From: Mobula hypostoma
Taxonomy: Eukaryota
Reading direction: 5' to 3'
Assembly (NCBI RefSeq): GCF_963921235.1
Contig: NC_086097.1
Location: 169,262,001-169,326,000, forward strand
Length of the DNA: 64,000 nt
Part shown: one piece after another, positions 1 through 51,584 of the stretch
How the letters are laid out: the number at the start of each line of letters is the position of its first letter
How positions within the stretch are numbered: the stretch's first letter is position 1
Made by a program: the position numbers and the translations under genes
Notes under the pieces: model-generated
Told to the model about the DNA's origin: nothing
Databases searched by the model: none
Seen by the model: only the letters and a program-made list of their open reading frames with translations

Positions 1-753
1 TCAGAAGGAGTAGCAGACCACATGACCCAATTGACATCGGTGGTGCGCAAGTGGAACAGGTCAAAAGCTTTAAGTTCCTCAGGGTCAATATCACAAATGA
101 CCTGACTTGGTCCAACCAAGCAGAGTTCGCTGCCAAGAAGGCCCACCAGCGCCTTTACTTCCTGAGAAAGCTAAAGAAATTTGGCCTGTCCTAAAACACT
201 CACTAATTTTTATAGATGCACCGAAGAAAGCATTCTTCTAGGGTGCATCACAACCTGGTATGGAAGTTGTCCTGTCCAAGACCGGAAAAAGCTGCAGAAG
301 ATCGTGAACACAGCCCAGCACATCACACAAACCAATCTTCCATCCTTGGACTCACTTTACTCTGCACGCTGTCGGAGCAGTGCTGCCAGGATAATCAAGG
401 ACACGACCCACCCAGCCAACACACTTTTCGTCCCTCTTCCCTCCAGGAGAAGGCTCAGGAGCTTGAAGACTCGTACGGCCAGATTTGGGAACAGCTTCTT
501 TCCAACTGTGGTAAGACTGCAGAACGGATCCTGACCCGGATCTGGGCCGTACCCTCCAAATATCCAGACCTGCCTCTCAGTTTTTTTTTGCACTACCTTA
601 CTTTCCCTTTTCTATTTTCTATTTATGATTTATAATTTAAATTTTTAATATTCACTATTGATTTCTACTCCAGGGAGCGCGCAGCGCAGAATCAAATATC
701 ACTGTGATGATTGTATGCTCTAGTATCAATTGTTTAGCCAGAATAAAGTAAAG
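1..753 (+). mobile_element. Rex1/Babar-type LINE, 3' portion (RT C-terminal region and 3' UTR); 5' part lies outside the window
   Basis: ORF 181..534 (LTNFYRCTEESIL...WYGSC...IIKDTTHPANTLFVPLPSRRRLRSLKTRTARFGNSFFP) has the typical Rex1/Babar C-terminus; ends in AATAAA-GTAAAG tail at 742-753. Confidence 0.85.
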
Positions 754-1159
754 AAGCAACGATCCCAGCAGCAGATTAAAGCCTCCCTGTAAATGAATAA
801 TATGGTCATTTTCTGCTTGGATCTACTATTGGTCTGAAAACTGACAGGATCTCAGGGGCAGGAAAAGCAACCAGTGTGACCCCTATTCTGGTGACTATTG
901 TGTACCCAAACACCAAGCTGAACAACAGGTTGAGGTTCTCCATATTCCCACTGTGGGAAAGGATAGATTTAATCATTTGGCTAGAAGGTTGCCCTAATGC
1001 CCCTGGAAGGAAAGGTTGCATAGGCACATACTTTTATCTACAATTAGGCAAGATATGTACCGAATATCCTCTTGCCCTTATTGGAAAAGGCAATGCTAGG
1101 TTCTGTTAGATCTTCCTTGAGCAGATTATCAAAGCTATTTGACAGAATGCCTGAGAACT

Positions 1160-1517
1160 GTCATAGTCATACTTTATTGATCCCGGGGGAAATTGGTTTT
1201 TGTTACAGTTGCACCATAAATAAATAGTAATACAACCAGAAATAATTAAATAGTAATATGTAAATTACACCAGATGGAAATAAGTCCAGGACCAGCCTAT
1301 TGGCTCAGGGTTTCTGACCCTCCAAGGGAGGAGTTGTAAAGTTTGATGTCCACAGGCAGGAATGACTTCCTATGACGCTCTGTGCTGCATCTCGGTGGAA
1401 TGAGTCTCTGGCTGAATGTACTCCTGTGCCCAACCAGTACATTATGTAGTGGATGGGAGACATTGTCCCAGATGGCATGCAACTTGGACGGCATCCTCTT
1501 TTCAGACACCACCGTCA
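1160..1517 (-). mobile_element. Rex1-type LINE, 5'-truncated 3' end
   Basis: ORF 1297..1518(-) KLHAIWDNVSHPLH...HRKSFLPVDIKLYN; minus-strand tail ATCAATAAAGTATGACTATGAC at 1160-1181; homologous to the 3' end of ORF 14885..15868. Confidence 0.8.
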
Positions 1518-2889
1518 AACAAGCATCAAGACTTAGCTAAAACACACAGATTGCTACAGGAACTCAGCAAGTCAAGCAGCACGTATGGAGTCAACACTTC
1601 AAGCCGAGACCGTTCATCAGCTTAGCTGGTGACGAGAAAGGCCCCCCTTTCTCAGATTGTTCAGCTTGGCGAGAATTCAACAGCACTATTATTGTCACCA
1701 AGGCAACTCCAGTGCGACCGAATCCATCAGCCTTATTGAATGTGCATTTGCCAAGGAAAGGCTGGAAATAGATGTGTGCCCTTTGACGAGAATCTTCCCC
1801 AACAGTTACACACTGTATAGGCCGTTCACACACCAAGACAAATATCAAACTCTGCTGGAGGATCATTGCTATGAAAGGTATTCTTTGCTCTGCCCATTAC
1901 TTGCTGCTGTTCCATTAGGATTGCCCAAAACTGTTTGCTCTAGAGTGGCACATTAGAATCATATTTATCATCACTGACATATATCTCATAAAATTTGTTT
2001 TACATCCCACAATTGAGGACTGTTGGAAAACTGATTAAGATATATAAGGAAAAGCCACAGCTTAAAATCCTCCTGCCATTGCACAATGTCACAAAAATGA
2101 GGGTACTATAAACGGAAGAAAAGAACCCTCAGGCTGATTGTGGCAGAGTGCATATCAGGCAAGTAACACATGTTGATATAAAATGAATCTTGCAAATGGA
2201 ATAGGGCACCTCTTTGTACCATGTACAGTGCTGAATGAATACCATTCTTGATGTATGAGCAATGACAACAACATTTTTGAAAAAAAACTAACAAAGCTGG
2301 CACACTTGGGACTCAATTGCTCAACTTCTTGCTTGCTTAAATTAATGAAACACCACAGTTGCAGCTTAGTTTCTTTATCTACGATAATGCAAGTCTTTCT
2401 TCTCTGTATTTGAGCAATTATTGCATCTGTAACATGCTTCAGTATGCACAATACCCACTTATATTTAAATGCCACCACACTACTAAACATACAAAATTAG
2501 TTGCATGTTCAACTGGTAGGTAATCATTTGATATATCTAGCAAATGATAGATCTATCTACTCTTTCTCCTTTGCTTTTACACTTTAATGGCCTATATCTG
2601 TTTCTGATTTTTAATGATTTCGCATTTAACTTCCCAGATTCTTCAAATCAAGATCTGCACATGCTTACAAGAGGTCCTGATATTTAGTCACTTAAAATTC
2701 TAACAGTAATCTGCAGAGATCAATAAAATATCCCAACAACTGCCATTACATTTAGATCCTCACCCATTATATTTGTGACTAACCAATATACAACTATGTT
2801 TCTAACTCAACGTATCCAGTTCAGAGATCCTTCAGTTACCCTTTTGCTAAAATATTCCCAGAAATGAAGGACCACTAACATTAGTTAAC

Positions 2890-3225: not shown

Positions 3226-4149
3226 ATTTGAATTAGTCAAGTGAAAATAATTGAAGATTTGAAAATTCCAGGGATGAGAGTTTGTGACCACAATCTTCTA
3301 GATACAAAACCCATTTCTGTGTAAAGGTACACAGAAACTTACACTTTTCCTAACTTGTTTATCAAAAAAAAAATCAACTATCAAAATCTGGCTTCTGTCC
3401 CCTTCTCTCCAGTCTTAATGAAGAATCTTGACCTAAAATATCAACTTTTTATTCCCCTCCATAGATACTGACTTGCTAAGCTCCCCTAACCTTGTGTGTT
3501 TTAAACATTCAGTCAAGTTGAAGGTGACACTTTCACTTGCCAAATGGTAGAAGTGAGATCCTCATAGAGCATTTACACCAAAAAATAACATAATGTACAA
3601 CTTCCTGCACTGCAACCGAAATCCTGGAGTCACCCTAACATAGAAAAGCAGGGGAAATTATTTTTTTAAATCTGAGTTTTAACTTTTTAAATATTTTTTA
3701 AAATCACCTTGTTTATCACGTGTGTTCTGCAATTCAATGACAATAGGGATCCAAGATGAACCTTCCTGAAATCATATTCTTTTATTTTTACAATAAATAC
3801 CTTACTTTAAAAAAACTGCAGCTGGACGCTTCATATAGCACTATAGTTATTTACTAATAGCCTTAGTGCATTCAGTGTTCACACCCAAATAAGGTTTTAA
3901 AAGGCAAATCAGCAGTTTAAATAGTATTGTACTCCAAAAAGTGACCAACGATGAAATTAACACAAAAATAAGCTCTACAAGGTGGTGTTTGGTTAGATGT
4001 TATAATGCATGGGTACTATAATATTTAAATAGATTAAGAATTACAACATTAACCTATAATTTATATTTAAAAAATTAAAGCCTTCTATTGTCTAAAACAA
4101 TTTAGGTCTACAAGACGCTCGTCAATCATACAAGCAAATAACTCCTTTT

Positions 4150-4360
4150 CCCACCAAATCCAACTGTCCTAACCGTCTCTTTCCATCTTCGCGCCACTTC
4201 TTTCTGTCGTCACTTCCCTTATTCGCCGCATCAACTGCGCTGAACAATTGGACGCAAGAGGAGGAACGCGTTGGGACGTAAAGTCCGCGATGGAGCGGAG
4301 CCCCGCCCCCGAACACTGCGTCACCCACAGGACCGCTGCATTCCGTAGCTACGTGAGCTC
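4150..4360. promoter_or_regulatory. CpG-rich promoter-like region (ETS/CRE composite, GC box); gene unidentified
   Basis: Local CpG cluster in AT-rich flanks; CGTCACTTCC (= GGAAGTGACG on minus) 4208-4217; CCCCGCCCCC 4301-4310; TGCGTCA 4317-4323; no resemblance to repeats in this window. Confidence 0.6.
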
Positions 4361-4529
4361 TGTCAATTTATCATCCCCAGGGTCCTGAAGTCCCACCGTC
4401 AGCTGTTTCCCTCTGTACTGATGCTTCCTGACCTGCTGAGTATTTCCATTTTTATTATAGATTTTTGGCTTCAGATTATTTACCTCGTATACTGAACATG
4501 ATTTGGTATTCTAAAGACGAGAGAGATCT

Positions 4530-4672: not shown

Positions 4673-4852
4673 AACTTGGTATTTTGAAGTGCAAGTGAAA
4701 TAAGACTTATTGATTATATCAATCTTCATCCATATTCTGTCTTGTATCAAGTGCAGTGCTGCCTATGATTCCTAACTTTCTTCCTCTGAAAACCTGGTCA
4801 CTCAAGAACTCAATATGAAAAACCAAATACTTAAATCCCTGCCTCCCTCTAA

Positions 4853-5591
4853 AGGCTGATTTATACTTGTGCCTCAAATGTACGCCGTAGGTACGGTGTA
4901 GCAACGTACCTACGCTGTACTCTACGCCGAACCCTACACCGTAGCCTAACACGCACCTCTCCCAAATTGTAACTACGCGTTGCGGCGACGCAGACCTCAA
5001 CAACTGTGATTGGTTGGCTTGGTAGCATTGCATTTCCTCCTACGCTGCAATAGCTTCCCATTTGGCGATTGAAGGGCAGGGAAGGATCTCTGGCTGCAAT
5101 GCTTTCCATAAAGCTTTACAGACCTCTGAAATTATGGAGGACCCTGTGCTTGATGCCAGATTGTAGCTAACTGCTACAGCCTGTTGACTTCCACCTGGAG
5201 CTAAAACTCGAATGGTGGTTGCCAGTCTCTGAGTATACTGTGCGTACACTGATGCAAAATAAATGGTTGGAGACGATGAACCAAATCGTCAAATCTACCT
5301 GCCGACATCCGAAAATATTTGAAATGCATTTCCTCGTCCATGTCTCTCAGTGGCCGGACAAGCACAGAAAATTCACCCTCCTTCAGTTTCAGTCGCCATT
5401 GTTTGAAGTTTGAGTTTCTTCGTGTTGAGTTTCAACATGAAGAAACTCAACACAGCGGCATAGAAACCCCACCGCCAACTTTTTTGGTGATGAATTGCAG
5501 AGCGACGCAGACACACCAATGCGCAAGTATAAATGCCCACAACGGCGTAGCCCACTTGCGTAAGCTAGTAGGCACAAGTATAAGTCAGCCT
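4853..5591 (-). mobile_element. PIF/Harbinger DNA transposon, internally deleted (non-autonomous)
   Basis: 22-bp TIRs AGGCTGATTTATACTTGTGCCT / AGGCACAAGTATAAGTCAGCCT (1 mismatch); TAA TSD at 4850-4852 and 5592-5594; minus-strand transposase remnant [28 protein letters not shown] / [46 protein letters not shown]. Confidence 0.9.
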
Positions 5592-5594
5592 TAA

Positions 5595-28141: not shown

Positions 28142-28280
28142 TCATTCTTTTGTAACAGATTCACCAACAAGTCGGATAGGGATACTTCCACATATATCTG
28201 TTTGTACCACGAGCAGTGCTTCGAATTTTCCTTCTGACTGTGGTTTGAACTGGACAGGCAGATTGATGTAGTGTTGAGCA
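28142..28280 (-). CDS. CEP192: Centrosomal protein 192, terminal coding exon
   Basis: ttttgtctag acceptor; (R)AQHYINLPVQFKPQSEGKFEALLVVQTDICGSIPIRLVGESVTKE-stop matches the recalled vertebrate CEP192 C-terminus (AQHYINMPVQFKPKSAGKFEALLVIQTD...); 139 nt, phase fits the preceding exon. Confidence 0.95.
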
Positions 28281-28839
28281 CTAGACAAAATAGCAGAGAT
28301 GTTAAATGAAAACAACAAGAAGCAAAGTTTTCTTCCCCCCAAACTTTATGACTAATAACATTTTCTTAAAAATTTGGCTGGTCTGTTTATGTATCATCTA
28401 TCCAACAGTGAAAAGCAGGAGAATACTAACATACAAGCTGTTAATTTTAAAACCCACTCTATGCCCCCTCAAATATTACAAGTCTTGAAATAGGGGTGAT
28501 CGTTTGGTTGAGATGTACTACTAAGTAATACTACTGCAAGAAATCCATTTTGTGGACAATCAAGAAACCAAGGTCGAAGTCTAAAAAAGATGTGAATGGA
28601 ATACTGACTTTACTTTCAATAAGCACTGAAATAAAGGGATAGATGATGTTTGTTATACAAAGCTTAGGGGATAGTTTACAAAAATGTGGGCAACAATCTT
28701 ATTTTCTCAGTTAAGAACCTATTAAAACTAAGAAAAAAGAGTTTCTTGAGATTAGGCCAATTGAAAATTATAGCTTTATTCTTCCAATTTCTCATCAATT
28801 GATAAATGTTATTTATTTATAGGGAGGAAATGCAGGGCA

Positions 28840-37373: not shown

Positions 37374-37468
37374 AGATGAAAGGTCTCAACCCGAAACGTC
37401 AACTGTTTATTCCTTTCCATAGATGCTGCCTGGCCTGCTGAGTTCCTCCAGCATTGTGTGTGTGTTGC
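37374..37468 (+). mobile_element. Miniature Penelope-like 3' terminus (95 bp) beginning within the hammerhead motif
   Basis: TSD CTTGAGGGAC (37364-37373) / CTTGAGGAAC (37469-37478); ends gtgtgtgttgc like the larger copy at 39744. Confidence 0.75.
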
Positions 37469-38506
37469 CTTGAGGAACTGAGTTGTAGGTGGTGATCTTA
37501 CAGAGGTGTATAAAATCACGAGGGACATAGATAGGGTGAATGCACCAGCCTTCTTGTCAGAGTTGGGGTATCAAGAAATAGAGGGGCATAGAGTTAAGGT
37601 AAGAGGGGAAAGATTTAAAAGGAACTTGTGGGGCAACTATATATTTTGCCTTAAACAGAAAGGGTAGTATCTATGTGGAATTGACTGCCACAGGAAATGG
37701 TTGAGGCAGGTACAATAACAATTTCAAAAAGACAGTTGGACTGTTGCATAGATTGTAAAGGTTTAGAGATTAGGTGCCAAATGTTAGCAAAAGGGACCAG
37801 CCTGGAGGAAACACCGTAGACAAGTTGGACCAAAAAACCCAAGTTGAGCCAAAAGTCATACATGTATGACTCTGACCATCAACAGCATGGCATGGTAGGT
37901 AAAAAAAAAGATATACTGTAAATACATTCAGGATACTGGGACTAAACAAAAGCAGAGAGAATAAGTACAAAGTACTTGTAGTGAAACTTAATAAAACACT
38001 CATTTGGCCAGAACTAGCAGAGTTTTGGTTTTAAGTGTTGACTGCTACAACAGAGAAAGAAGGTTTTAAGGAGGTTTGCAGGAGATTTACCAGAATGATT
38101 CCAAGGATGAGGGATTTGAGTTGAAAACTCAATTGGGAACTGGGCAGATATGCACTATTCTTGCAAACAGTGGTCATTGTGGCTTTCTTCAATATTAACC
38201 TGTGATTCATGAAACCTAAATATTCATAATTAGGAGATGAGACTATGGTAAAGAGAAACGAATAATTAATTCATTTCAGGCAATGACAAAATCAAACAAA
38301 CAGCAATGTTCACAACAAACAGGTGTTTAACATAGTGTCAACTACACTTAGGTGGGTTCTGCTATTAAAGATACCAAGTAAGATACAAACAAAAATTGTA
38401 GCAAAGAATGCAAAGCTTGTCATACTTCACCGGAAAAACAATAGATTGAACGAGACCAATATTGTACTCTAATTTAATGACTTGTAGCAAATATTTTCTT
38501 ACTGAC

Positions 38507-38619
38507 CCAGTTTTGGTTAATCTTTCCAACAAAGACTTCCTTGTTTTCACTGCCGTTTCTGTTCTTACTAGTTGTGGGGCTGAACTGGTTTCCTTGGAGC
38601 TCATTTTGGGTTTTGTTCC
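38507..38619 (-). CDS. CEP192: CEP192 coding exon (113 nt, linker between ASH domains)
   Basis: ttttccag|GTKPKMSSKETSSAPQLVRTETAVKTRKSLLERLTKT(G)|gtcagt; low sequence conservation but phase 0 in / phase 2 out exactly bridges the flanking exons. Confidence 0.8.
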
Positions 38620-38641
38620 CTGGAAAATAAATGCGTTTATT

Positions 38642-39741
38642 GCAAATACAAGGAATTCTGCAGATGCTGGAAATTCAAGCAACACACATCAAAGTTGCTG
38701 GTGAACGCAGCAGGCCAGGCAGCATCTATAGGAAGAGGCACAGTTGACGTTTTGGGCCGAGACCCTTCGTCAGGACTAACTGAAGGAAGAGCTAGTAAGA
38801 GATTTGAAAGTGGGAGGGGGAGGGGGGGATCCAAAATGATAGGAGAAGACAGGAGGGGGAGGGATGGAGCCAAGAGCTGGACAGGTGATTGGCAAAAAGG
38901 ATATGAGAGGATCACGGGACAGGAGGCCCAGGGAGAAGGAAAAGGTGTGGGGGGGAGAAACCCAGAGGATGGGCAAGGGGTATAGTCAGAGGGAGAAAAA
39001 GGGGGGGGGGGGGGAGAGAGAAAGAAAGAGAGAGAGAGACACACACACAGAAAATGTGTGTATATAAATAACTAACGGATGGGGTACGAGGGGGAGGTGG
39101 GGCATTAGCGGAAGTTAGAGAAGTCAATGTTCATTAGCGAGATCGTTTTGCTGAACACCTACGCTGTCCGCCAGAGAAAGCAGGATCTCCCAGTGGCCAC
39201 ACATTTTAATTCCACATCCCATTCTGATATGTCTATCCATGGCTCCCCTACTGTAAAGATGAAGCCACACTCAGGTTGGAGGAATAACACCTTATATTCT
39301 GTCTGGGTAGCCTCCAACCTGATGGCATGAACATTGATTTCTCAAACTTCCGCTAATGCCCCACCTTCCCCTTGTACCCCATCCGTTATTTATTTATATA
39401 CACACATTCTTTCTCTCTCTCCTTTTTCTCCCTCTGACTATACCCCTTGCCCATCTTCTGGGTTCCCCCCCCTCCCCCTTTTCCTTCTCCCTGGGCCTCC
39501 TGTCCCATGATCCTCTCATATCCCTTTTGCCAATCACCTGTCCAGCTCTTGGTTCCATCCCTCCCCCTCCTGTCTTCTCCTATCATTTTGGATCTCCCCC
39601 CTCCCCCTCCCACTTTCAAATCTCTTACTAGCTCTTCCTTCAGTTAGTCCTGACGAAGGGTCTCGGCCCGAAACGTCGACTGTACCTCTTCCTAGAGATG
39701 CTGCCTGGTCTGCTGCGTTCACCAGCAACTTTGATGTGTGT
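38642..39741 (+). mobile_element. Penelope-like element, 5'-truncated, with inverted pseudo-LTR
   Basis: Inverted arms 38679..39134 and 39327..39744; centre encodes GIY-YIG C-terminus (DRFAEHL...QDLPVATHFNS...LGSLQPDGMNIDFSNFR-stop 39354-39356); TSD TGCGTTTATT at 38632-38641 and 39742-39751. Confidence 0.92.
39645..39682 (+). ncRNA. Minimal type I hammerhead ribozyme motif in the Penelope pLTR
   Basis: Stem I TAGTC/GACTG; core CTGACGA (39650-39656) plus extra A; stem II GGGT-CTCG-GCCC; GAAA (39670-39673); loopless palindromic stem III ACGT; GTC cleavage triplet ending 39677. Confidence 0.8.
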
Positions 39742-39874
39742 TGCGTTTATTACACATTTCTTTGCTATTAAATGGGGAAAAATGTATCCAAAATTATATC
39801 AATATAAAAACTTGTATAAACAAAAATAATTCCTGCATCCAAACAGCTTTTCCAGGCAATTAACATTGTCTACA

Positions 39875-40695
39875 GAGACTTTAACAAGGATTTTTAGCGA
39901 AGTTTCATGAGAGGCTAGTCCAGATGGTTAAGTTGCGTGATATTCAGGATGAAATAGTCAATTGAGTTTAGCACTGGCTCCGTGGGAGAAGACAGAGTGC
40001 TAGTAGATGCTTGTCTCTCACTGGAAGTTTGTGACTAGCGGCATGCTGCAGGGATCTGGGCTGGCTATGTTATCATCTATATTAATGATTTCAATGACAA
40101 TATGACAAAATGGATCAGCAAATTTGCAGATGACATCAAGATAGAAGGGACAGTGGACAGCGAGGAAGGCTATAAAAGCTTGCAGTGGGATCTGGACCAG
40201 CTGGAAAATGGGAGATGGAATTAAATGCAGATAAGGTATTGCACTTTGGGAGGACAAACCAGGATACAACTTACATGGTGAGTGGTAGGGTACTGAGGTG
40301 TGCGAGAAAACAAGGGGATCTGGGAATACAAACTTATAATTCCTTGAAAGTGGCATCACAGGTAAATAGGGTTGTAAAGAGAGCATTTGGTACATTGGCC
40401 TTCCTGGAACATAGGGAATGAGGGGAGATTTGATAGAGGTATACAAAACGATCAGGGGTATAAATAGGGTAAATACATGCAGTTTTTTTCCCCCTTGAAG
40501 TTGGGTGAGTCTAGAACCAGAGGTCATAGATTTAAGGTGAAAGGTGAAATGTTTAGGGGGAACCTGAGGGGAAACTTCACTTCACTCAGATGGTAGTGCA
40601 AGTAGGAAACTGCCATCTGAAGTGGTGGATGCTGGCCAGCACATACTAGATGGGCTGAAGGGCCTGTTTCTGCACTGTAGTGCTCTATGACTCTT
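39875..40695 (+). mobile_element. CR1 LINE 3' portion with internal deletions
   Basis: tggatcagcaaatttgcagatgacatc (WISKFADD); atgaggggagatttgatagagg; tail tgctctatgactct. Confidence 0.8.
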
Positions 40696-40859
40696 TGTCC
40701 TTAAATTAAACACTCATAAATGTCACCCAACAGCCTCCTACATTACAGTGAAAATAAACATCAGCCTATCCAATCTCTCCTCATAACTTCAATCCTTCAT
40801 TCCAGATATTAGCCTGGTGAATCACTTCCACATTCTCTCAGTTGTTTACCAAATCCTTC

Positions 40860-43034
40860 CAGTGCATGTGGGTACCAATGGCATGGGTAGGACGAGTGAC
40901 AAGGTTCTGCAAAATGAGTTCAGGGAGTTAGGCACTAAGATGAGAGCAGGACTTCCAGGGTTGTGATCTCAGGATTGCTACCTGTGACACTTGCTGGTGA
41001 GGCCAGAACGTGGAAGATTATACAGTTTAATATCTGGCTAAGGAGTTGGTGTAGGAGAGAGAGCATAAGATTTTTGGATCATCGACTCTCTTCCAAAGAA
41101 GGTGGAACCTGTACAGAAGGGACAGTTTGCACCTGAACTGGAGGGGGACTAATATCCTAGTAGGAAGGCTTGTTAGTGCTGCACAGTGCCCTGAACTGCG
41201 ATATTTTTCAATGCAATTAGTATTGTAGGAAAGGTGGATGAGCTCAGGGCATGGATCAAGATCTGGAATTATGACATTGTAGCCACTGGTGAGATTTAGT
41301 TGCAGGTATGGCAGCTCAATATTCCGTGGTTCCATTGTTTTAGATGGGAGGGATTAAAGGGATTTAATCTGTACAAAGAAGTCCCAATGGGAGAGAATGC
41401 AATACTGGGAATACAATTGGGAATGAGACAGGGCAGGTGACAGAAGATTTGTAGGAGAACACTCTAGATCCAGTGACCACAATACCACTAGTTTCAAAGT
41501 AATTATGCAAAGAGATTGGTCTGGTCCGTAGGTTGAGATTCTAAATTGGGGAAGGCTAATTTTGATTGTATCAGAAGTGATCTGCCAGGTGTGGATTGGG
41601 ACAGGCTGTTTTCCGGCAAAGATGTACTTGGAATGTGAGAGACCTTCAAAAACAAAATTTTGAGAGTACAAAGCTTGTATGTGCCTGTCAGAATAAAGAG
41701 TAAAGATAACAAGTGTAGGGAACTTTGGTTTTCAAGAGATGTTGAGGCCCTGGTTAAGGGAGAAAGTAACAGGTATAGGCAAGTAGGAACATATGCCGTG
41801 TTCATGGAGTACAAGAAATGCAAGAGGAAATTATAGGCCGGCCAGTCTGACATTAATTGTGGGAAAGTTATTCTAAGGGACCAGATATATAAATATTTGG
41901 ATAGACATGTACTGATTAAGGATAGTCAGTATGACTTTGTGTATGGTAGGTCATGTCTAACCAATCTTGTAGAGTTTTTCGAGGAAAGTGATGAAGGCAA
42001 GGCAAGGCAGTGTATGTTGTCTACATGGACTTTAGTAAGGCATTTGACAAGGTCCCGCATAGGAGGCTGGTCAAGAAGGTTTAGTCCCTTGGCATTCAGA
42101 ATGAGGTAGTAAACTGGATTAGATATTGACTTTGTGGGAGAAGCCAGAGAGTGGTAGTAGAGCGTTGCCTCTCTGACTGGAGGTCTGTGACTAGTTGTGT
42201 GCCGCAAGAATTGGTGCAGGGTCCTTTCTTGTTTGTCACCGAAATCAATGATCTGGTTGATAATGTGGTTAACTGGATCAGCAGATCTGTGGATGACACT
42301 AAGAGGGGGGTATAGTGGACAGAGAGAAAGGCTATCATTGCTTGCAGGGGGATTTGCAGCAACTGGAAAAATGGCAGATGGAATTTAATGCAGACAAGTG
42401 CAAGGTTCTGCACTTAGGTAGGACCAACTAGGGTGAACAGTAAGGCACTGAGGAGTGTGGTAGAACAAAGTGATCTGGGATTACAGGTACATAATTCATT
42501 GAAAGTGGTGTCACAGGTAGATAGGGTTATTAAGAAAGCTTTTGGCACATTGGCCTTTTGTAAATTAATGCATTGAGTACAAAAGATGGGATGTCATGTT
42601 GAAGTTGTATAAGACGTTGGTGAGGTCTATTTCGGAGTACTGTATGCAGGTTTGGTCACCTACCTACATGAAAAATGGAAACAAGGTTGAAAGAGAAAAT
42701 TTACAAGCATATTACCTGGTCTGGAGGACCCGAGTTATAAGAAAAGATTGAACAGGTTAGGACTGTATTCTTTAGAACATAGAAAATTGAGAGGAGATTT
42801 GATAGAGGTATACAAAATTATGAGGGGTCTAGATAGGGTAAATGCAAGCAAGCTTTTTCCACTAAGTTGGGTGGGACTACAGCCAGAGGTCATGGCTTAA
42901 GGGTGAAAGGTGAGAAGTTTAAGGGGGACGTGCAGGGGAAACATCTTCATTCAGAGGGTCATGAGAGTGTGAAATGTACTGCCAGCACAAGTGGTCCATG
43001 TGATTTCGATTTCAGCACTTAAGAGAAGTTTGGA
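40860..43034 (+). mobile_element. CR1 LINE, deleted and decayed (ORF1 end to 3' ORF2)
   Basis: HVGTN-like gtgcatgtgggtaccaatg; GRSCLTNLVEFFEE; truncated at the TA of the Tc1 insertion. Confidence 0.85.
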
Positions 43035-43036
43035 TA

Positions 43037-43416
43037 CAGTTGAAGTCAGAAGTTTACATACACCTTAGCCAAATACACTTAAACACAGTTTTTCACAATT
43101 CCTGACATTTAATCCTAGAAAACATTCCCTGTCTTAGGTCAGTTAGGATCACTATTTTATTTTAAGAATGTGAAATGTCATAATAATAGTAGCGAGAATG
43201 ATTTATTTCAGCTTTTACTTCTTTCATCACTTTCCCAGTGGGTCAAAAGTTTACATACATTTTATTAATATTTGGTAGCATTGCCTTTAAATTGTTTAAC
43301 TTGGGTCAAACGTTTTGGGTTGCCTTCCGCAAGCTTCTCACAGTAAGTTGCTGGAATTTTGTTCCATTCCTCCAGACAGAACCGGTAACTGAGTCAGGTT
43401 TGTAGGCCTCCTTGCT
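43037..43416 (-). mobile_element. Tc1/mariner fragment: Sleeping Beauty-like right IR/DR plus transposase C-terminus
   Basis: TA|CAGTTGAAGTCAGAAGTTTACATACACCTTAGCC outer DR; inner DR CAGTGGGTCAAAAGTTTACATACA at ~43236-43259; minus strand ARRPTNLTQL-(frameshift)-RFCLEEWNKIPATYCEKLAEGNPKRLTQVKQFKGNATKY-stop (43265-43267). Confidence 0.92.
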
Positions 43417-45037
43417 ACAATAGCAGCAGGAAGGGAAATAGGCATCCAATGCAAAGTACCTGTGTGGCCATTCCCCTCAATAATAAATATACCTTTTTGG
43501 ATACTGTGGAGGGCGACGATCTTCCAGGGGTGGGGGGAACCACACTAACCAGGTCTCTGGCGCTGTGGCACAGAAGGGAAAGGGGCGAAGAGGACTGCAG
43601 AAGTGAGAGAGGAATAGACACGAGATCATGAGATTCTGTGGACTCGATAGAGAGACCCGGATGGTATGTTGCCTCCCAAGTGCCAGGGTCAGGGTCATTT
43701 TGGATTGGCTTCATGACATTCTAAAGGGGGAGGGTGTGTAGCCAGAAGTCTCGATATATATTGGCGCCAATGACATAGGCAGGTAAGGTCCTCAAGAAAG
43801 AATTTAGTGAGACAGGTAGAAAGCTGAGAAGCAGGATATCCAGTGCCTGTGCCACATGCCAGAGAGGGTAAGAATAGGATGATCTGGCAGATTCATGTGT
43901 GGCTGAGAAGCTGGTGTGGGGTTTAAGACTTCTGGATCATTGAGATCTCTTCTGGGGATGGTACAACTTGTACAAAAAGGGTGGGTTACACCTGAACCCA
44001 AGGGAGACCAATATCCTTACAGGCAAATTTGTGAAAACTATTGTGGAGGGTTTCAACTAATTTGGCAATGGGATAGGAACCAGACTAATAGAGGAAGAGA
44101 TAGGGCTGTTAGTTTACAAGTAGAGATAATGTGTCGTGAGACTGGCAGAAAGCAGTCAGATGGTAAGGCAATATTGCAGTCGTGGAATGAGTTTCAGTGT
44201 AGAAGGGAGACAAAATCGAAAAAGGTATTGGATACAGGATTAAAGGTTTTTTGTTTGAATGCACACAGTATACGGAATAAAGATGATGATCTTGTAGCGC
44301 AGTTTGAGATTGGCAGATATGACATTGTGGGCATCACTGAATCATGGCTGAAAGCTGGGAGCTTAACCTCCAAGGATACACGTTGTATCAAAGGGACAGG
44401 CGAGTTAGCAGAGGGGATGTGTGGTTCTGTTGGTAAAAAAAAATCCCTAGAAAGAGGTGACATGAGATTGGAAGTTGTAGAATCCTTATGGGTAGAGTTA
44501 AGAAGTGAAACAATAAAAATACCCTGATAGGAGTTATATAAAGGCCTCTGACCAGTAGCCAGAATTACAGCGGGAGATAGAAAAGGTTTGTCAAAAGGGC
44601 AATGTTACGATAGGCATGGGGATTTCAATATGCTGGTAGACTGGAAAATCAGGTTGGTACTGAAACCCAAGAGAGAGAATTTGTAGAATGCCTACAAGAT
44701 AGCTTTCCAGAGCAGCTTGTAGTTGAGTCCTTTAGGGGATCAACTATTCTGGATTAGGTGTTGTGTAATGAACCAGATTTGATTAGGGAGCTTAAGGTGA
44801 CGGAACCCTTAGGAGCCAGTGATCATATGATAGAATGCACCCTGTAGTTTGAGAGGAGTCAGATGTATCGGTACTACAATGGATAAACCGAATTACAGAG
44901 GTATGAGAGAGGAGCTGGCCAAGGTTGACTAGAAGGGGATACTAGCCTGGATGACAGCAGAGCGGCCATGGCTGTAGTTTTTGGGAGCAATTTGGAAGAC
45001 GCAGGATAGATACATCCCACAGAGTAAGTGTTCTAAA

Positions 45038-45180
45038 CACAAACAAGAGAAAATCTGGAGATGCTGGAAATCTAAGCAACACACACAAGATGAAGAGTCT
45101 CAGCTCGAAACATCAACTGTACACTATTCTACAGATGGTGCCTTGCCTGCTGCGTTCCTCCAGCATTGTAGGTGTATTGC
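45038..45180. mobile_element. Miniature Penelope-derived insertion (143 bp) with short inverted 5' arm
   Basis: 13-bp TSD TAAGTGTTCTAAA (45025-45037) / TAAGTATTCTAAA (45181-45193); degenerate hammerhead gatgaagagtctcagctcgaaacatc. Confidence 0.8.
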
Positions 45181-46535
45181 TAAGTATTCTAAAGGCAGGA
45201 TGATGCAATCATGGCTGATAAGGGAAGTCAAAGCCAACATAAAAACAAAAGAAAGGGCATATAATAGAGCAAAAATTACTTGGAAGTTAGAGGATTGGGA
45301 AAAGTAAAAACCAACGGAAGCCAACTAAAAAAGCCATGGGGGGGAAACGGGGAGAGATGAAATATAAAGAGTTAAAGAGAGGTGACAGAAGACATTGGAT
45401 CGATGAAACTTGGCACAGGAGAGGTGGTAATGGGGGACAAAGAAATACAGATGAACTGAATAAGTATTTTGCATCAGTATTCACTGTGAAAGACACTAGT
45501 AGTATGCTGGCGTGCCAGGGTGTAGAAATCAGTGTAGTTACTATTACTAGGGAGAAGGTGCTTTGGAAGCTGAATGGTCTGAGGGTAGATAAGTCACCTG
45601 AACCTGATGGAGTACACCCCAAGGTTCTGAAGGGATTGTGCAGGCATTAGTAATGATCTTTCAAGAACCACTTGATCCTAGAATGGCTCTGGAAGAATAG
45701 AAAATTGCAGATGCCACTCTACTCGTCATGGAGGGAGGAAGTCAGAAGAAAGGAAAATATATGCCAGTCAGCCTGACCTCAGTGGTTGGAAAGATGTTGC
45801 AGTCAATTAAGGATGTATTTTCAGGGTATTTGGAGACACATGATAAAATAGGCCAAAGTCAGCATGGTTTCCTTAAGGGAAAATGTTGCCCGACAAATCT
45901 GTTGGAATTCTTTGAGGAAATAACAAGCAGGACAGACAAAGGAGAATCATCGATGTTGTATACTTGGATTTTCAGAAGGCCTTTGACACGATGGCACATG
46001 TTAGGCTGCTTAACAAGAGCCCATAGTATTATAGAAAAGATACTAGCACAGATAAGAGTATTGGTTGACTGGCAGGAGGCAAAAGGTGAGAGTAAAGGGA
46101 ACCTTTTTTAATTGGCTGCCTCTGACTAAAGGTCTTCCAGAGGGTCAGTGTTAGGACTGCTTTTTTTTAACGTTACATGTCAATGATTTGGATGATGGAA
46201 TTGATGGATTTGTGGCCATGTTCGCAGACAATAGGAAGATAGGTGGAGGGGTAAGAGATGTCGAAGCAAGTAGCTGAAGAAGTGAGCGGAAGAATTTGGG
46301 TGGAAAAAGTTGTTTCTTTTTAAAAACTGCTTGGGGAGAAGGGTCTGCACTGCGCAGGCGCGTGATGTAGCGCGCCAAGGTTTAAAAAGCAGACCACCAT
46401 ATACAGCGGCCATCATCGGAGTGGACTGAGTCAGAGTGGGGCGGCTTTGACTCAAACAGGCTTAGGCGAGAACAGGCAGACGCCAGGGTAGGTTCTGGTA
46501 AGTTTTTTTTGTTCAGATTGTCCTGTGTAGAGAGA

Positions 46536-47470
46536 ATGCCAGGCAGGATGTTGGAATGCTCCTCTTGCAGGAGGTGGGAAGTCAGGGAGCCCTCCGGTGT
46601 CCCCGACAACGCACCTGCAAGAAGTGCATCCAGCTGCAGCTCCTGACAAACCGCGTTAGGGAACTGGAGCAGGAGCTGGATGACCTGCGGATCATTCGGG
46701 AGAATGAGGAGATTATAGATAGTAGCTACAGGGAGGTAGTTACGCCAAAGGAGCAGAGGACAGGAAATTGGGTCACTGTCAGGCGAGGGAAGGGGAAAGG
46801 GCAGGCAGAGCAGGGTTCCCCTGTGGCCATTCCCCTCAACAACAAGCATACTGCATTGGATACTGTTGGGGGGGATGACTTACCTGGGACTAGCTGCAGT
46901 AGCCGGATCTCTGGCACTGGGTCTGGCTCTGCAGTGCAGAAGGGAGGGGGGAAAAAGAGGAGAGCAGTAGTGATAGGGGATTCGATAGTTAGAGGTGCAG
47001 ATAGGAGGTTCTGTGGTTGTGACAGAGAATCCAGGATGGTTTGTTGCCTCCCAGGTGCCAGGGTCAAGGATGTCTCTGATTGATTGCATGACATTCTGAA
47101 GTGGGAGGGTGATAAGCCAGATGTCGTGGTGCACGTCGGTACCAATGACATAGCAAGGAAGAGTGAGGAGGTCCTGGAGAGTGAGTATAGAGAGCTTGGT
47201 AGGAAGTTGAAAAGCAGGACCTCGAGGGTGGTAATCTCAGGATTGCTACCTGTGCTACATGCCAGTGAGGGTAGGAATAGGATGCTCTGGAGGATGAACA
47301 AGTGGCTGAGGAACTGGTGTAGGGAGCAGGGTTTCAGATTTCAGGATAATTGGGACCTCTTCTGGGGCAGGTGGGACCTGTACAAGAGAGACGGGTTACA
47401 CTTGAACTACAGGGGGACCAATATCCTTTCAGGGAGGTTTGTTAATGCTATTGGGGGGGCTTTAAACTAG
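46536..47470 (+). pseudogene. CR1 ORF1 (zinc finger/leucine zipper plus SGNH esterase), disrupted
   Basis: MPGRMLECSSC...(frameshift)...TCKKCIQLQLL...VIGDSIVRG...stop 47081-47083...VHVGTND...DGLHLN. Confidence 0.88.
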
Positions 47471-47472
47471 AT

Positions 47473-50400
47473 TTGCAGGGGGATGGGAACCACAGTACCA
47501 GAGCTGACAGTGTGGCTGGGGTGAAAATAAATGATGTTAAAAGTTCAAGCAAATCCACTAATAGAAAGGTTGTGAGTGGTGGTAAAAATCTTCTGAGGTG
47601 TATATATTTCAATGCTAGGAGTATTGTGGGGAAGGCGGATGAGTTGAGGGTGTGGATTGACACGTGGAATTATGACGTTGTAGCAATTAGTGAAACTTGG
47701 CTACAGGAGGGGCAGGACTAGCAGCTTAATATTCCAGGGTTCCGATGTTTCAGATGTGATCGAGGCAGAGGAATGAAAGGTGGGGGAGTGGCATTGCTTG
47801 TTAGGGAAAATATTACAGTAGTGCTCAGGCAGGACAGATTAGAGGGCTTGTCTACTGAGTCCTTGTGGGTGGAGCTGAGAAACAGGAAAGGTATGGCCAC
47901 ATTAGTGGAATTGTATTACAGACCACCCAATAGTCAAAGAGAATCAGAAGTGCAAATCTGCAGAGAGATAGCAGGCAACTGCAGGAAACATAAAGTTGTG
48001 GTGGTAGGGGATTTTAATTTTCCATATATTGATTGGGTCTCCCATACTGTTAGAGGTCTAGATGGTTTAGAGTTTGTAAAATGTGTTCAGGAAAGTTTTC
48101 TAAATCAATATATAGAGGGACCAACTAGAGGGGATGCAATATTGGATCTCCTGATAGGAAATGAATTAGGACAACTGACAGAAGTCTGTGTAGGGGAGCA
48201 CTTTGGTTCCAGTGATCATAACACCATTAGTTTCAACTTGATCATGGACAAGGATAGATCTGGTCCTAGGGTTGAGGTTCTTAACTGGAAGAAGGCCAAA
48301 TTTGAAGAAATGAGAAAGGATCTAAAAAGCGTGGAATGGGACAGGTTGTTCTCTGGCATGGATGTGATCGGTAGGTGGGAAGCCTTCAAAGCAGAAATTT
48401 TGAGAGTGCAGAATTTCTATGTCCCTGTCAGGATTAAAGGCAAGGTGAATAGGAATAAGGAACCTTGGTTCTCAAGGGATATTGCAACTCTGATAAAGAA
48501 GAAGAGGGAGTTGTATGACGTGTATAGGAAGCAGGGAGTAAATAAGGTGCTTGAGGAGTATAAGAAGTGCAAAAAAATACTTAAGAAAGAAATCAGGAGG
48601 GCTAAAAGACATGAGGTTGCCTTGGCAGTCAAAGTGAAGGATAATCCAAAGAGCTTTTACAGGTATATTAAGAGAAAAAGGATTGTAAAGGATAAAGTTG
48701 GTCCTCTTGAAGATCAGAGTGGTCGGCTATGTGCGGAACCAAAGGAAATGGGGGAGATCTTAAATAGGTTTTTTGCCTCTGTGTTTACTCAGGAAACTGG
48801 CATGAAGTCTATGGAATTAAGGGAAACAAGTAGTGAGATCATGGAAACTGGAGGAGGTGCTTGCTGTCTTGAGGAAAATTAAAGTGGATAAATCCCCGGG
48901 ACCTGACAGGGTGTTCCCTTGGACCTTGAAGGAGACTAGTGTTGAAATTGCAGGGGCCCTGGCTGAAATATTTAAAATGTCGCTGTCTACAGGTGAGGTG
49001 CTGGAGGATTGGACAGTGGCTCATGTTGTTCCGTTGTTTAAAAAAGGATCGAAAAGTAATCCGGGAATAGGCCAGTAAGTTTAACGTCGGTAGTAGGTAA
49101 GTTATTGGAGGGAGTACTAAGAGACAGAATCTACAAGCATTTGGATAGACTGGGACTTATTAGGGAGAGTCAACATGGCTTTGTGCGTGGGAGGTCATGT
49201 TTGACCAATCTACTGGAGTTTTTCGAGGAGGTTACCAGGAAAGTGGATGAAGGGAAGGCAGTGGATATTGTCTACATGGACTTCAGTAAGGCCTTTGACA
49301 AGGTCCCGCATGGGAGGTTAGTTAGGAAAATTCAGTCGCTAGGTATACATGGAGAGGTGGTAAATTGGATTAGACATTGGCTCGATGGAAGAAGCCAGAG
49401 AGTGGTGGTAGAGAATTGCTTCTCTGAGTGGAGGCCTGTGACTAGTGGTGTGCCACAGGGATCAGTGCTGGGTCCATTGTTATTTGTCATCTATATCAAT
49501 GATCTGGATGATAATGTGGTAAATTGGATCAGCAAGTTTGCTGATGATACAAAGATTGGAGGTGTAGTAGACAGTGAGGAAGGTTTTCAGAGCCTGCAGA
49601 GGGACTTGGACCAGCTGGAAAAATGGGCTGAAAAATGGCAGATGGAGTTTAATACTGACAAGTGTGAGGTATGCACGTTGGAAGGACAAACCAACGTAGA
49701 ACATACAGGGTTAATGGTAAGGCACCGAGGAGTGCAGTGGAACAGAGGGATCTGGGAATACAGATACAAAATTCCCTAAAAGTGTCGTCACAGGTAGATA
49801 GGGTTGTAAAGAGAGCTTTTGGTACATTGGCCTTTATTAATCAAAGTATTGAGTATAAGAGCTGGAATGTTATGATGAGGTTGTATAAGGCATTGGTGAG
49901 GCCGAATCTGGAGTATTGTGTTCAGTTTTGGTCACCAAATTACAGGAAGGATATAAATAAGGTTGAAAGAGTGCAGAGAAGGTTTACAAGGATGTTGCCA
50001 GCACTTGAGAAACTCAGTTACAGAGAAAGGTTGAATAGGTTGGGACTTTATTCCCTGGAGCGTAGAAGAATGAGGGGAGATTTGATAGAGGTATATAAAA
50101 TCATAGATAGAGTGAATGCAAGCAGGCTTTTTCCACTGAGGCAAAGGGAGAAAAAAACCAGAGGACATGGGTTTAGGGTGAGGGGCGAGAAGTTTAAAGG
50201 GAACATTGGGGGGGGGGCTTCTTCACACAGAGAGTGGTGGGAGTATGGAATGAGCTGCCAGACGAGGTGGTAAATGCGGGTTCTTTTTTAACATTTAAGA
50301 ATAAATTGGACAGATACATGGATGGGAGGTGTATGGAGGGATATGGTCCGTGTGCAGGTCAGTGGGACTAGGCAGAAAATGGTTCGGCACAGCCAAGAAG
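47473..50400 (+). pseudogene. CR1 ORF2 (APE endonuclease plus reverse transcriptase), disrupted
   Basis: [42 protein letters not shown]; split across ORFs 47473..47721, 47773..48882, 48833..49078, 49105..49779, 49671..50273. Confidence 0.9.
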
Positions 50401-51464
50401 GGCCAAAAGGCCTGTTTCTGTGCTGTAGTTTCTATGGTTTCTATGTTGAGGAAGAACAGAGGCTGCAGAAGGTCTTGGATAGATTAGGAAAATGGACTAA
50501 GTAGTGGCTAATGGAATAGTGTCGGGAAGTACACGGTCATACACTTTGGTAGATGGAATAAAAGCATAGACTATTTTCTTAATAGGGTGAAAATTCAAAA
50601 ATCCAACATGCAAAGGGACTTGGGAGTCATCGTGCAGGATTCCTTAAAGGTTAATTTACAGGTTGAGTCGGTGGTGAGGAAGACAAATCCATGTTAGCAT
50701 TCATTTCAAGAGGACTGGAATATAAAAGCAAGGATGTAATGCTGAGGGTTTAAGGCACTAGTGAGGTCTCATTTGGAGTACTGCGAGCAGTTTCTTATTT
50801 AAGAAAGGACGTACTGACATTGGAGGGGTTTCAGAAAAGGTTCACGAGAATGATTCTGGGAATGAAAGTCTCATCGTATGAAGAGCGATTGAAGGCTCTG
50901 GGCCTTTACTTACTGGAATTTAAAAGAATGAGGGGTGGGGAGGGCAAGAATCTCACTGAAACCTCTCGAATGGTGCAAGGCATAGATAGGGTGGATGTGG
51001 AGAGGATATTTCCTATATTGCGTGAGTTTAGGACCAAAGTATATTGCCTCATCAGAATAGATGCTTTAGAATGGAGATAAGAAGGAATTTGTTTAGCCAG
51101 AGAGTGGTGAACCATGGAATTCATTGCCACAGGCAGCTGTGGAGGCCAGGTCATTGGGTATTTAAGGCCAGGGTTGATACGTTCTTGATTAGTCAACCTG
51201 TGAAAGGTTACGGGGAGAAGGTTGAGAAGAATGAGGCTGAGGGGGAAATGGATCAGCCATGATGAAATAGTGGAGCAGACTCGATGGGCCAAACAGCCTA
51301 GTTCAGCTCCTCTGTCTTATGGTCAAAAACACTAAATTTCTTGTGCAAGCCCACATCTCTCTTTTTACCTGGGTTAAATTGCATGTCATGCAAAATTATA
51401 CACTCACATACCCAAATGGATTGCACTCTTCATTTCAAAAACAGAAGCCTTCATTTTTGCTTAC

Positions 51465-51584
51465 CACACCATGAAGCTGAAACTGAATCTTGTTCTTTAC
51501 ATGTGGCTCTGCAACCAGACGATATTCCAGATCCCAAAATTGTGCATAATCCCCCTTATCTCGAGGCATAAAAGAGACAGGCAA
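51465..51584 (-). CDS. CEP192: CEP192 coding exon (120 nt)
   Basis: tcttctag|LPVSFMPRDKGDYAQFWDLEYRLVAEPHVKNKIQFQLHGV|gtaagc; GDYAQFWD motif matches recalled CEP192. Confidence 0.95.

Follow-up and report, generated by a model that had tools for sequence, protein, structure and literature searches.

The transposon fragment and its place in the ray genome

The window, by which we mean the whole stretch of 64,000 nucleotides from Mobula hypostoma that was analysed, carries the last eight coding exons of CEP192 on the minus strand (28145-63377), all intact and near-identical to Mobula proteins. The exon at 28145-28282 (minus strand) matched Pfam Cep192_D8 and was 100% identical to Mobula CEP192 over 45 residues, while the exon at 38506-38619 had 38 of 38 residues as in M. 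hypostoma and 35 of 38 as in M. birostris. A further CEP192-like protein of M. hypostoma (P0395, 481 aa) showed 68% identity in the last exon. Between the exons at 51465-51584 and 38506-38619 lies an intron of 12,845 bp (38620-51464, minus strand), and within it we found the right end of a Tc1 transposon of the Sleeping Beauty (SB) clade, 380 bp long, at 43037-43416 on the minus strand and thus in the same orientation as CEP192.

To the right of the SB fragment, a young and nearly full-length CR1 with long open frames (46400-50395, plus strand) is nested within the older CR1 that adjoins the fragment; the 3' part of that older copy picks up again at ~50400-51270. ORF2 of the young CR1 was 95% identical to an M. 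hypostoma protein, with best identities of 65-81% in Hypanus, 58-65% in Narcine and 45% in Heterodontus, and no teleost name occurred among the best 120 of its 259 matches. Judged by the matches of the exons and of this ORF2, the DNA around the SB fragment belongs to a devil ray or a very close relative. This agrees with a sequence-only reading of the window, which had taken the host for a cartilaginous fish and not a teleost.

The window reads GGA-TA-CAGTTGAAG at 43032-43045, and the SB fragment begins with CAG at 43037, directly after the TA target dinucleotide (43035-43036), which lies within the 3' region of a CR1. The right inverted repeat (IR), of the IR/DR type, spans 228 bp (43037-43264, minus strand). 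It holds an outer direct repeat at 43045-43067, assigned to family D2 in the repeat search, and an inner one at 43242-43264, with a spacing of 197 bp and 87% likeness; changes private to this copy fall in the inner repeat at 43246, 43260 and 43264. By analogy with SB, we take the outer repeat to be a putative transposase binding site. The IR/DR group is marked by IRs of ~180-300 bp with two internal direct repeats, and the surviving right IR, the sole one left, has this length and structure. The last 50 codons of the transposase (291-340) and the stop follow at 43265-43416 (minus strand), where the frame finishes in PKRLTQVKQFKGNATKY-stop, with the stop codon at 43265-43267, and is shifted by one 2-bp deletion behind 43384. 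The best match of this frame to a solved structure was the catalytic-domain chain of SB100X (5cr4, E 4.1e-14; one of two sequences at E<=10). The TA target, an IR of ~225 bp with outer and inner direct repeats, and a transposase C-terminus with a single frameshift had all been noticed in the sequence-only reading, and all were recovered here.

The left part of the element (~1.26 kb) and any further SB sequence were absent from the rest of the window, as examined by blastn and tblastn. An autonomous element has both IRs and an intact ORF of ~340 codons, whereas this copy retains one IR and 50 codons with a frameshift. The DD34E catalytic residues presumably sit upstream of codon 291, hence outside the fragment. 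The SB copy is dead, with a single IR and no catalytic core. Scans of the window for tRNAs and Rfam families gave no match.

The CR1 that received the insertion (41391-43034, plus strand) runs from the endonuclease-RT part of ORF2 to the 3' region, shows 71-74% identity to the window's young CR1, and has lost its tail past the TA. Its 3' region reaches the TA, and the corresponding end of another CR1 in the window likewise shows GGATA and then continues. The transposon therefore took a TA already present in the CR1 as its target and arrived later than that CR1 copy. On the right, ~8 unassigned bases (43417-43424) separate the transposase part from a second CR1 copy (43425-45844, plus strand), which begins within ORF1 and is not the continuation of the left-flank CR1. 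Other copies of the transposon read on into transposase at 43416 in three sequencing runs. Simple insertion of the second CR1 into the SB transposon was ruled out, because the rest of the element is not in the window, and a later deletion appears to be the simplest reading of the edge at 43416. The second TA of the target duplication was probably lost along with the remainder of the element, leaving a TA on the surviving side alone. The earlier claim of an insertion into a CR1, postdating that copy, therefore holds at the left junction; on the right, the neighbour is a different CR1, apparently joined by deletion.

A ray-type SB family beside the salmonid-type elements

Two metagenome contigs with complete SB elements flanked by TA, L001 and L002, were used for comparison; they came from a metagenome scan with the full-length relative P0029, in which 3 of 130 candidate stretches were confirmed. 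They are called salmonid-type by sequence and not by host label, because Oncorhynchus and Hucho proteins fall in the 90% cluster of P0029 and because P0029 itself shows 97.4% identity to a vector SB transposase. Contig L001 also carries a second Tc1 (44-1610, minus strand) with 65-bp terminal repeats and an open frame of >330 codons, which abuts the SB element with one TA common to both.

The window copy and L001 were alike in 355 of 386 columns (E 2e-161 against 3 loci), far beyond chance. From the terminus to 43416, DNA identity was 92.4% to both L001 and L002, and the difference from L001 amounted to 29 substitutions and one 2-bp deletion over 380 bp. Low nucleotide identity to salmonid elements, which the sequence-only reading had named as the result that would tell against it, was thus not seen. 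By part, identity to L001 was 93.4% in the non-coding IR (213 of 228 bp) and 90.8% in the coding part (152 bp), the latter above the level of >80% given for SB within-clade comparisons in the available text of Jia et al. (PMC9777934). Since 43037-43264 was only 66.8% identical to the left IR of L001, the window IR is a right IR, and together with the SB100X structure match this confirmed the proposed assignment to the right IR/DR of SB.

Sequences of the window stretch were partly present in 21 sequencing runs from 9 studies, none of which holds half of the words, and four runs were compared (X1, X15, X8 and X19). X1 is a skin metagenome, i.e. a mixed sample, and X15 comes from one labelled organism of a different study; both were called ray-type by CR1 cover alone. 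X1 and X15 covered all 30 bins, both CR1 flanks included. X8 and X19 covered the SB element only, with very high summed depth and salmonid-type letters, and lacked cover of the CR1 flanks at 80% likeness. The element contigs, one per run, showed 10 differences from the window in 260 bases for X1 and 8 in 221 bases for X15, the latter with the 2 bases that the window lacks, and the listed difference positions explain the full totals for both runs. At 8 listed places where X8 and X19 differ, X1 and X15 have the letter of the window, and 17 of the 29 substitutions between the window and L001 are common to X1 and X15. Private to the window copy were 13 changes in 380 positions (3.4%, 95% interval 1.8-5.8%; 9 transitions and 4 transversions) and the frameshift. 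Because letters are shared with ray-type and not with salmonid-type runs, contamination by vector or teleost DNA cannot explain the copy, and the same substitutions support the earlier argument against a vector origin. Read from these shared letters, the fragment is a decayed copy of a ray-resident SB family and neither vector nor fish contamination.

The window copy was 96.6% identical to the ray-type subfamily versus 92.4% to the salmonid type, and L001 and L002 were 99.1% alike; copies within a clade were closer than copies between clades, which is one criterion of Zhang et al. for horizontal transfer. The ray-type family differed from L001 at 8 of 228 IR positions (96.5% DNA identity to the right IR), 10 of 152 coding positions and 18 of 380 positions overall. 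Eight of the 10 coding differences were non-synonymous, counted on 50 codons only, and 2 synonymous changes fell on ~32 synonymous sites. At F303, P312-A313 and E317 the ray family agrees with proteins from Prochilodus, Sparus and Muraenolepis and departs from the salmonid type, and at other codons it carries the salmonid state. This mix of non-salmonid and salmonid residues indicates that the ray SB family is, by its sequence, sister to the salmonid subfamily and not a copy of it. The match to salmonid-derived SB claimed in the sequence-only reading was accordingly upheld in its high non-coding identity (93.4% for the copy, 96.5% for the family), but "salmonid-derived" proved too narrow for a sister family.

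As a safeguard against contamination, Zhang et al. require five or more copies per clade; those found here were the window fragment, a part of M. hypostoma TTC33 isoform X3, and one collapsed X1 contig with a depth of 258.8, which is not a copy number. Isoform X3 of TTC33 (P0002, XP_062905703.1) ends, at residues ~160-235, in the C-terminal part of the same ray SB transposase; this part is annotated as its last exon and reads a few residues beyond the normal stop. Of 38 residues, the window peptide has 34 in common with TTC33 X3 and 30 with the salmonid and vector proteins. TTC33 X3 was the sole chondrichthyan name among 106 protein matches, and among the best 120 of 206 protein matches no chondrichthyan name occurred besides the query, which is weak evidence for a patchy distribution across cartilaginous fishes. 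The end of TTC33 X3 is possibly an exonisation of an SB right end, or an annotation artefact. A protein from a 577-bp NCBI contig (P0001) had ray-type residues save at codon 309 and could come from another ray or from the donor lineage.

Two trees were built, one from 12 SB rows hand-picked from several hundred matches with one outgroup, the Tc1 translated from L001, and one from 16 rows without outgroup. The ray rows were short, just 38-98 residues in the tree with outgroup. The window, the Mobula piece and P0001 clustered together (84/87). The ray rows were sister to the salmonid and vector rows with support of 94/97 with the outgroup, on a branch that was not starred, and 96/96 without it. 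By this grouping the short ray rows belong to the SB clade, and in the free tree they fell within teleost diversity. A tree holding all teleost-type rows together was not rejected by the AU test (p 0.198) with ray rows of this length.

Probable horizontal transfer and its alternatives

The SB end is far too alike the salmonid type for inheritance from an ancestor of rays and bony fishes, which makes a crossing between lineages most likely, and we consider horizontal transfer the best reading of the ray fragment, with a probability of about 0.9. The ray-type IR has 96.5% DNA identity to the salmonid type, whereas CEP192, over its last 300 residues, reaches 48.5% protein identity with sardine and 55.6% with paddlefish, an amino-acid proxy and not Ks. 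The proxy speaks strongly for an element that diverged less than host orthologues did at synonymous sites, as Zhang et al. demand of a transfer. The contrast supports the argument of the sequence-only reading that such non-coding likeness is too high for vertical descent.

We propose that an active SB-clade Tc1 colonised the germ line of an ancestral myliobatiform ray, with ray-finned fishes as the most likely source, either directly or via a carrier, and that cut-and-paste transposition would then have built up a subfamily specific to rays. One copy appears to have landed at a TA in the old CR1 of the CEP192 intron, where the TA junction, the intron and the host are seen directly in the window. 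The 13 private substitutions and the 2-bp deletion in its 380 bp look like neutral decay, and a deletion, as suggested by the anatomy, may have removed the left 1.26 kb of the element along with the end of the one CR1 and the beginning of the other.

The age of the insertion is poorly bounded, because mutation in sharks is slow (7e-10 per generation, as given in the accessible part of PMC10587355); the teleost side is still not frozen. A decay of 3.5% corresponds to 11, 35 or 70 My at rates of 3.1e-9, 1e-9 and 0.5e-9 per year, of which the first is about the vertebrate rate per site in the available text of PMC7070016 and the last two are illustrative. No date is claimed for the insertion, since the shark pedigree rate implies implausibly many generations. 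According to the same text, Zhang et al. found transferred elements to show purifying selection; in contrast, the coding changes between ray and salmonid types (8 of 10 non-synonymous, on 50 codons) do not show it.

Transfer from teleost to ray seems more economical than other directions, because known SB diversity is actinopterygian. A variant of transfer, in which a third party, such as another fish or a parasite, passed the element to both lineages or the ray was the donor, is a real possibility, though we would not favour it. It is consistent with the residues at F303, P312-A313 and E317, shared with Prochilodus, Sparus and Muraenolepis and not with the salmonid type, and with the clustering of P0001 with the ray rows. 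On the other hand, known SB diversity is nearly all from ray-finned fish in the available text of PMC9777934, and chondrichthyan names were confined to one in 106 protein matches and to the query itself among the best 120 of 206. A 19-nt direct-repeat pattern had no match in viral contigs, and none of 51 candidate stretches of P0001 in prokaryote genome contigs was confirmed.

It is highly improbable that the element was inherited vertically since the last common ancestor of jawed vertebrates and changed very slowly in rays. Taken at face value, the shark rate would turn 3.5% decay into ~5e7 generations (0.035 / 7e-10), which, like the non-significant AU test, would suit slow descent. Yet the split lies ~473 My back in the tree of the consulted supplement of Zhang et al. 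2020 (PMC7070016), and descent over 2 x 473 My is possible only if both sides averaged 3.8e-11 changes per site per year, compared with about 3.1e-9 for vertebrates, so the teleost side would have to be frozen as well, IR spacer included. Teleost SB proteins differ among themselves by 14-19%, exceeding the DNA difference between ray and salmonid types. The copy, moreover, sits within a kind of CR1 that had no cover in the two salmonid-type runs at 80% likeness.

It is equally improbable that a function keeps the fragment in place, such as that of a CEP192 module providing an intronic poly(A) site or a terminal exon. Its sense orientation with CEP192, 4 poly(A)-like hexamers and the annotated last exon of TTC33 X3 from the same family part would fit such a role, but the decay looks neutral, with transitions, transversions and a frameshift, and the eight CEP192 exons seen are all intact.

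SB vectors are common in laboratories, and no contig of the four runs compared bridges either junction of the copy, yet an assembly artefact in which vector or teleost (food, lab) DNA was joined into the ray assembly is scarcely credible, given the 17 substitutions common to ray-type runs, the same residues in the Mobula protein, the private changes and frameshift, the clean TA junction in a CR1 inside an intact CEP192 gene, and no match by blastn in 72,556 plasmid records.

Known relatives, implications and other elements of the window

The ray fragment shares its IR/DR right end, TA target and transposase C-terminus with SB10/SB100X and natural salmonid-type Tc1 sources, and differs from them in that the host is a ray, the family is 18 of 380 positions apart and the copy is a 380-bp dead remnant. 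In its available text, the survey of Jia et al. 2022 (PMC9777934) recorded SB in 107 ray-finned fish species of 33 orders and one mollusc, with no chondrichthyan; SB-like elements were given for no cartilaginous fish and ZB-like ones for one. The ZB-like Tc1 of that species is likewise a fish-type DD34E/Tc1 with long TIRs and many copies in a cartilaginous fish, and it thus offers a precedent for such a host jump, although it belongs to a different clade (CDS identity of SB and ZB 52-54% in the same text).

Transfers of this kind are well documented in vertebrates. In the accessible parts of Zhang et al. 2020 (PMC7070016), Tc1/mariner, as found here, was the commonest transferred type, and ray-finned fishes took part in 93.7% of 975 events; PMC3516227, in the portion available, describes a teleost-lamprey Tc1 transfer. 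Of 6 chondrichthyan names looked for in the PMC7070016 supplements, just Callorhinchus and Rhincodon were present in the portions available, with no batoid. Likewise, 6 chondrichthyan terms gave 0 matches in the available text of the preprint version of PMC12400950, and 6 chondrichthyan labels, guessed abbreviations that may be wrong, gave 0 matches in the obtained part of the Jia et al. supplement. The accessible text of a manta genome preprint (10.64898/2026.10.27.761883) gives DNA-transposon totals only, and that of PMC13343379 CR1-group elements only. No published report of SB in rays was found in the literature searched, which covered few subscription journals and, for bioRxiv, the preprint text.

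With the ray SB family, a familiar type of event gains a new host; transfers of SB seem not to have been reported from this group before. Surprise is moderate, since such events are well known and the copy is a dead remnant. The record would extend the SB clade across the deepest split of jawed vertebrates (~473 My), into a group listed as SB-free by the 2022 survey and, in the available material of the 307-genome screen, represented by no batoid among the names looked for. The ray subfamily may serve as a dated marker for a fish-to-ray jump and as a natural outgroup for SB evolution.

A bioRxiv preprint (10.1101/2024.05.27.594570) reports, in its available text, that TcMar elements make up 2.3% of ray and 3.3% of skate genomes versus 0.14% in sharks, and mentions SB among the TcMar subtypes in a general sentence. 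For this skate and ray expansion, no family-level identification or transfer claim was found in that text, where "horizontal" occurs once, for retinal cells. The ray SB family offers a testable cause for the TcMar burst reported in rays. Tentatively, and with some doubt, we suggest that the Tc1/mariner excess of rays over sharks might stem from horizontal invasions from ray-finned fishes, one of them the ray SB sister family. It would then be a natural, separately evolved SB lineage with older C-terminal residues. Its right end would already be part of the host transcript TTC33 X3, and some ray may still carry intact copies.

Further elements were observed in the window. In the intron that holds the SB fragment, at 52 bp from the CEP192 exon 38506-38619, lies a palindrome of ~1.08 kb (38672-39751), with arms 89-95% complementary and 192 bp between the innermost arms; related pieces occur at 37375-37445 and 45089-45157. 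It resembles two inverted copies of the end of a ray retroelement, which we take to be a candidate Penelope-like element. Downstream of CEP192, at ~4100-4400, AT-rich unique DNA is interrupted by a short GC-rich, CpG-bearing patch, which may mark the promoter or the first exon of an adjacent gene. Bounded by 23-bp terminal inverted repeats (96%) and holding two internal hairpins, an element of 741 bp at 4852-5592 is in our view reminiscent of the non-autonomous PIF/Harbinger elements of fishes and is a possible second candidate for horizontal transfer.
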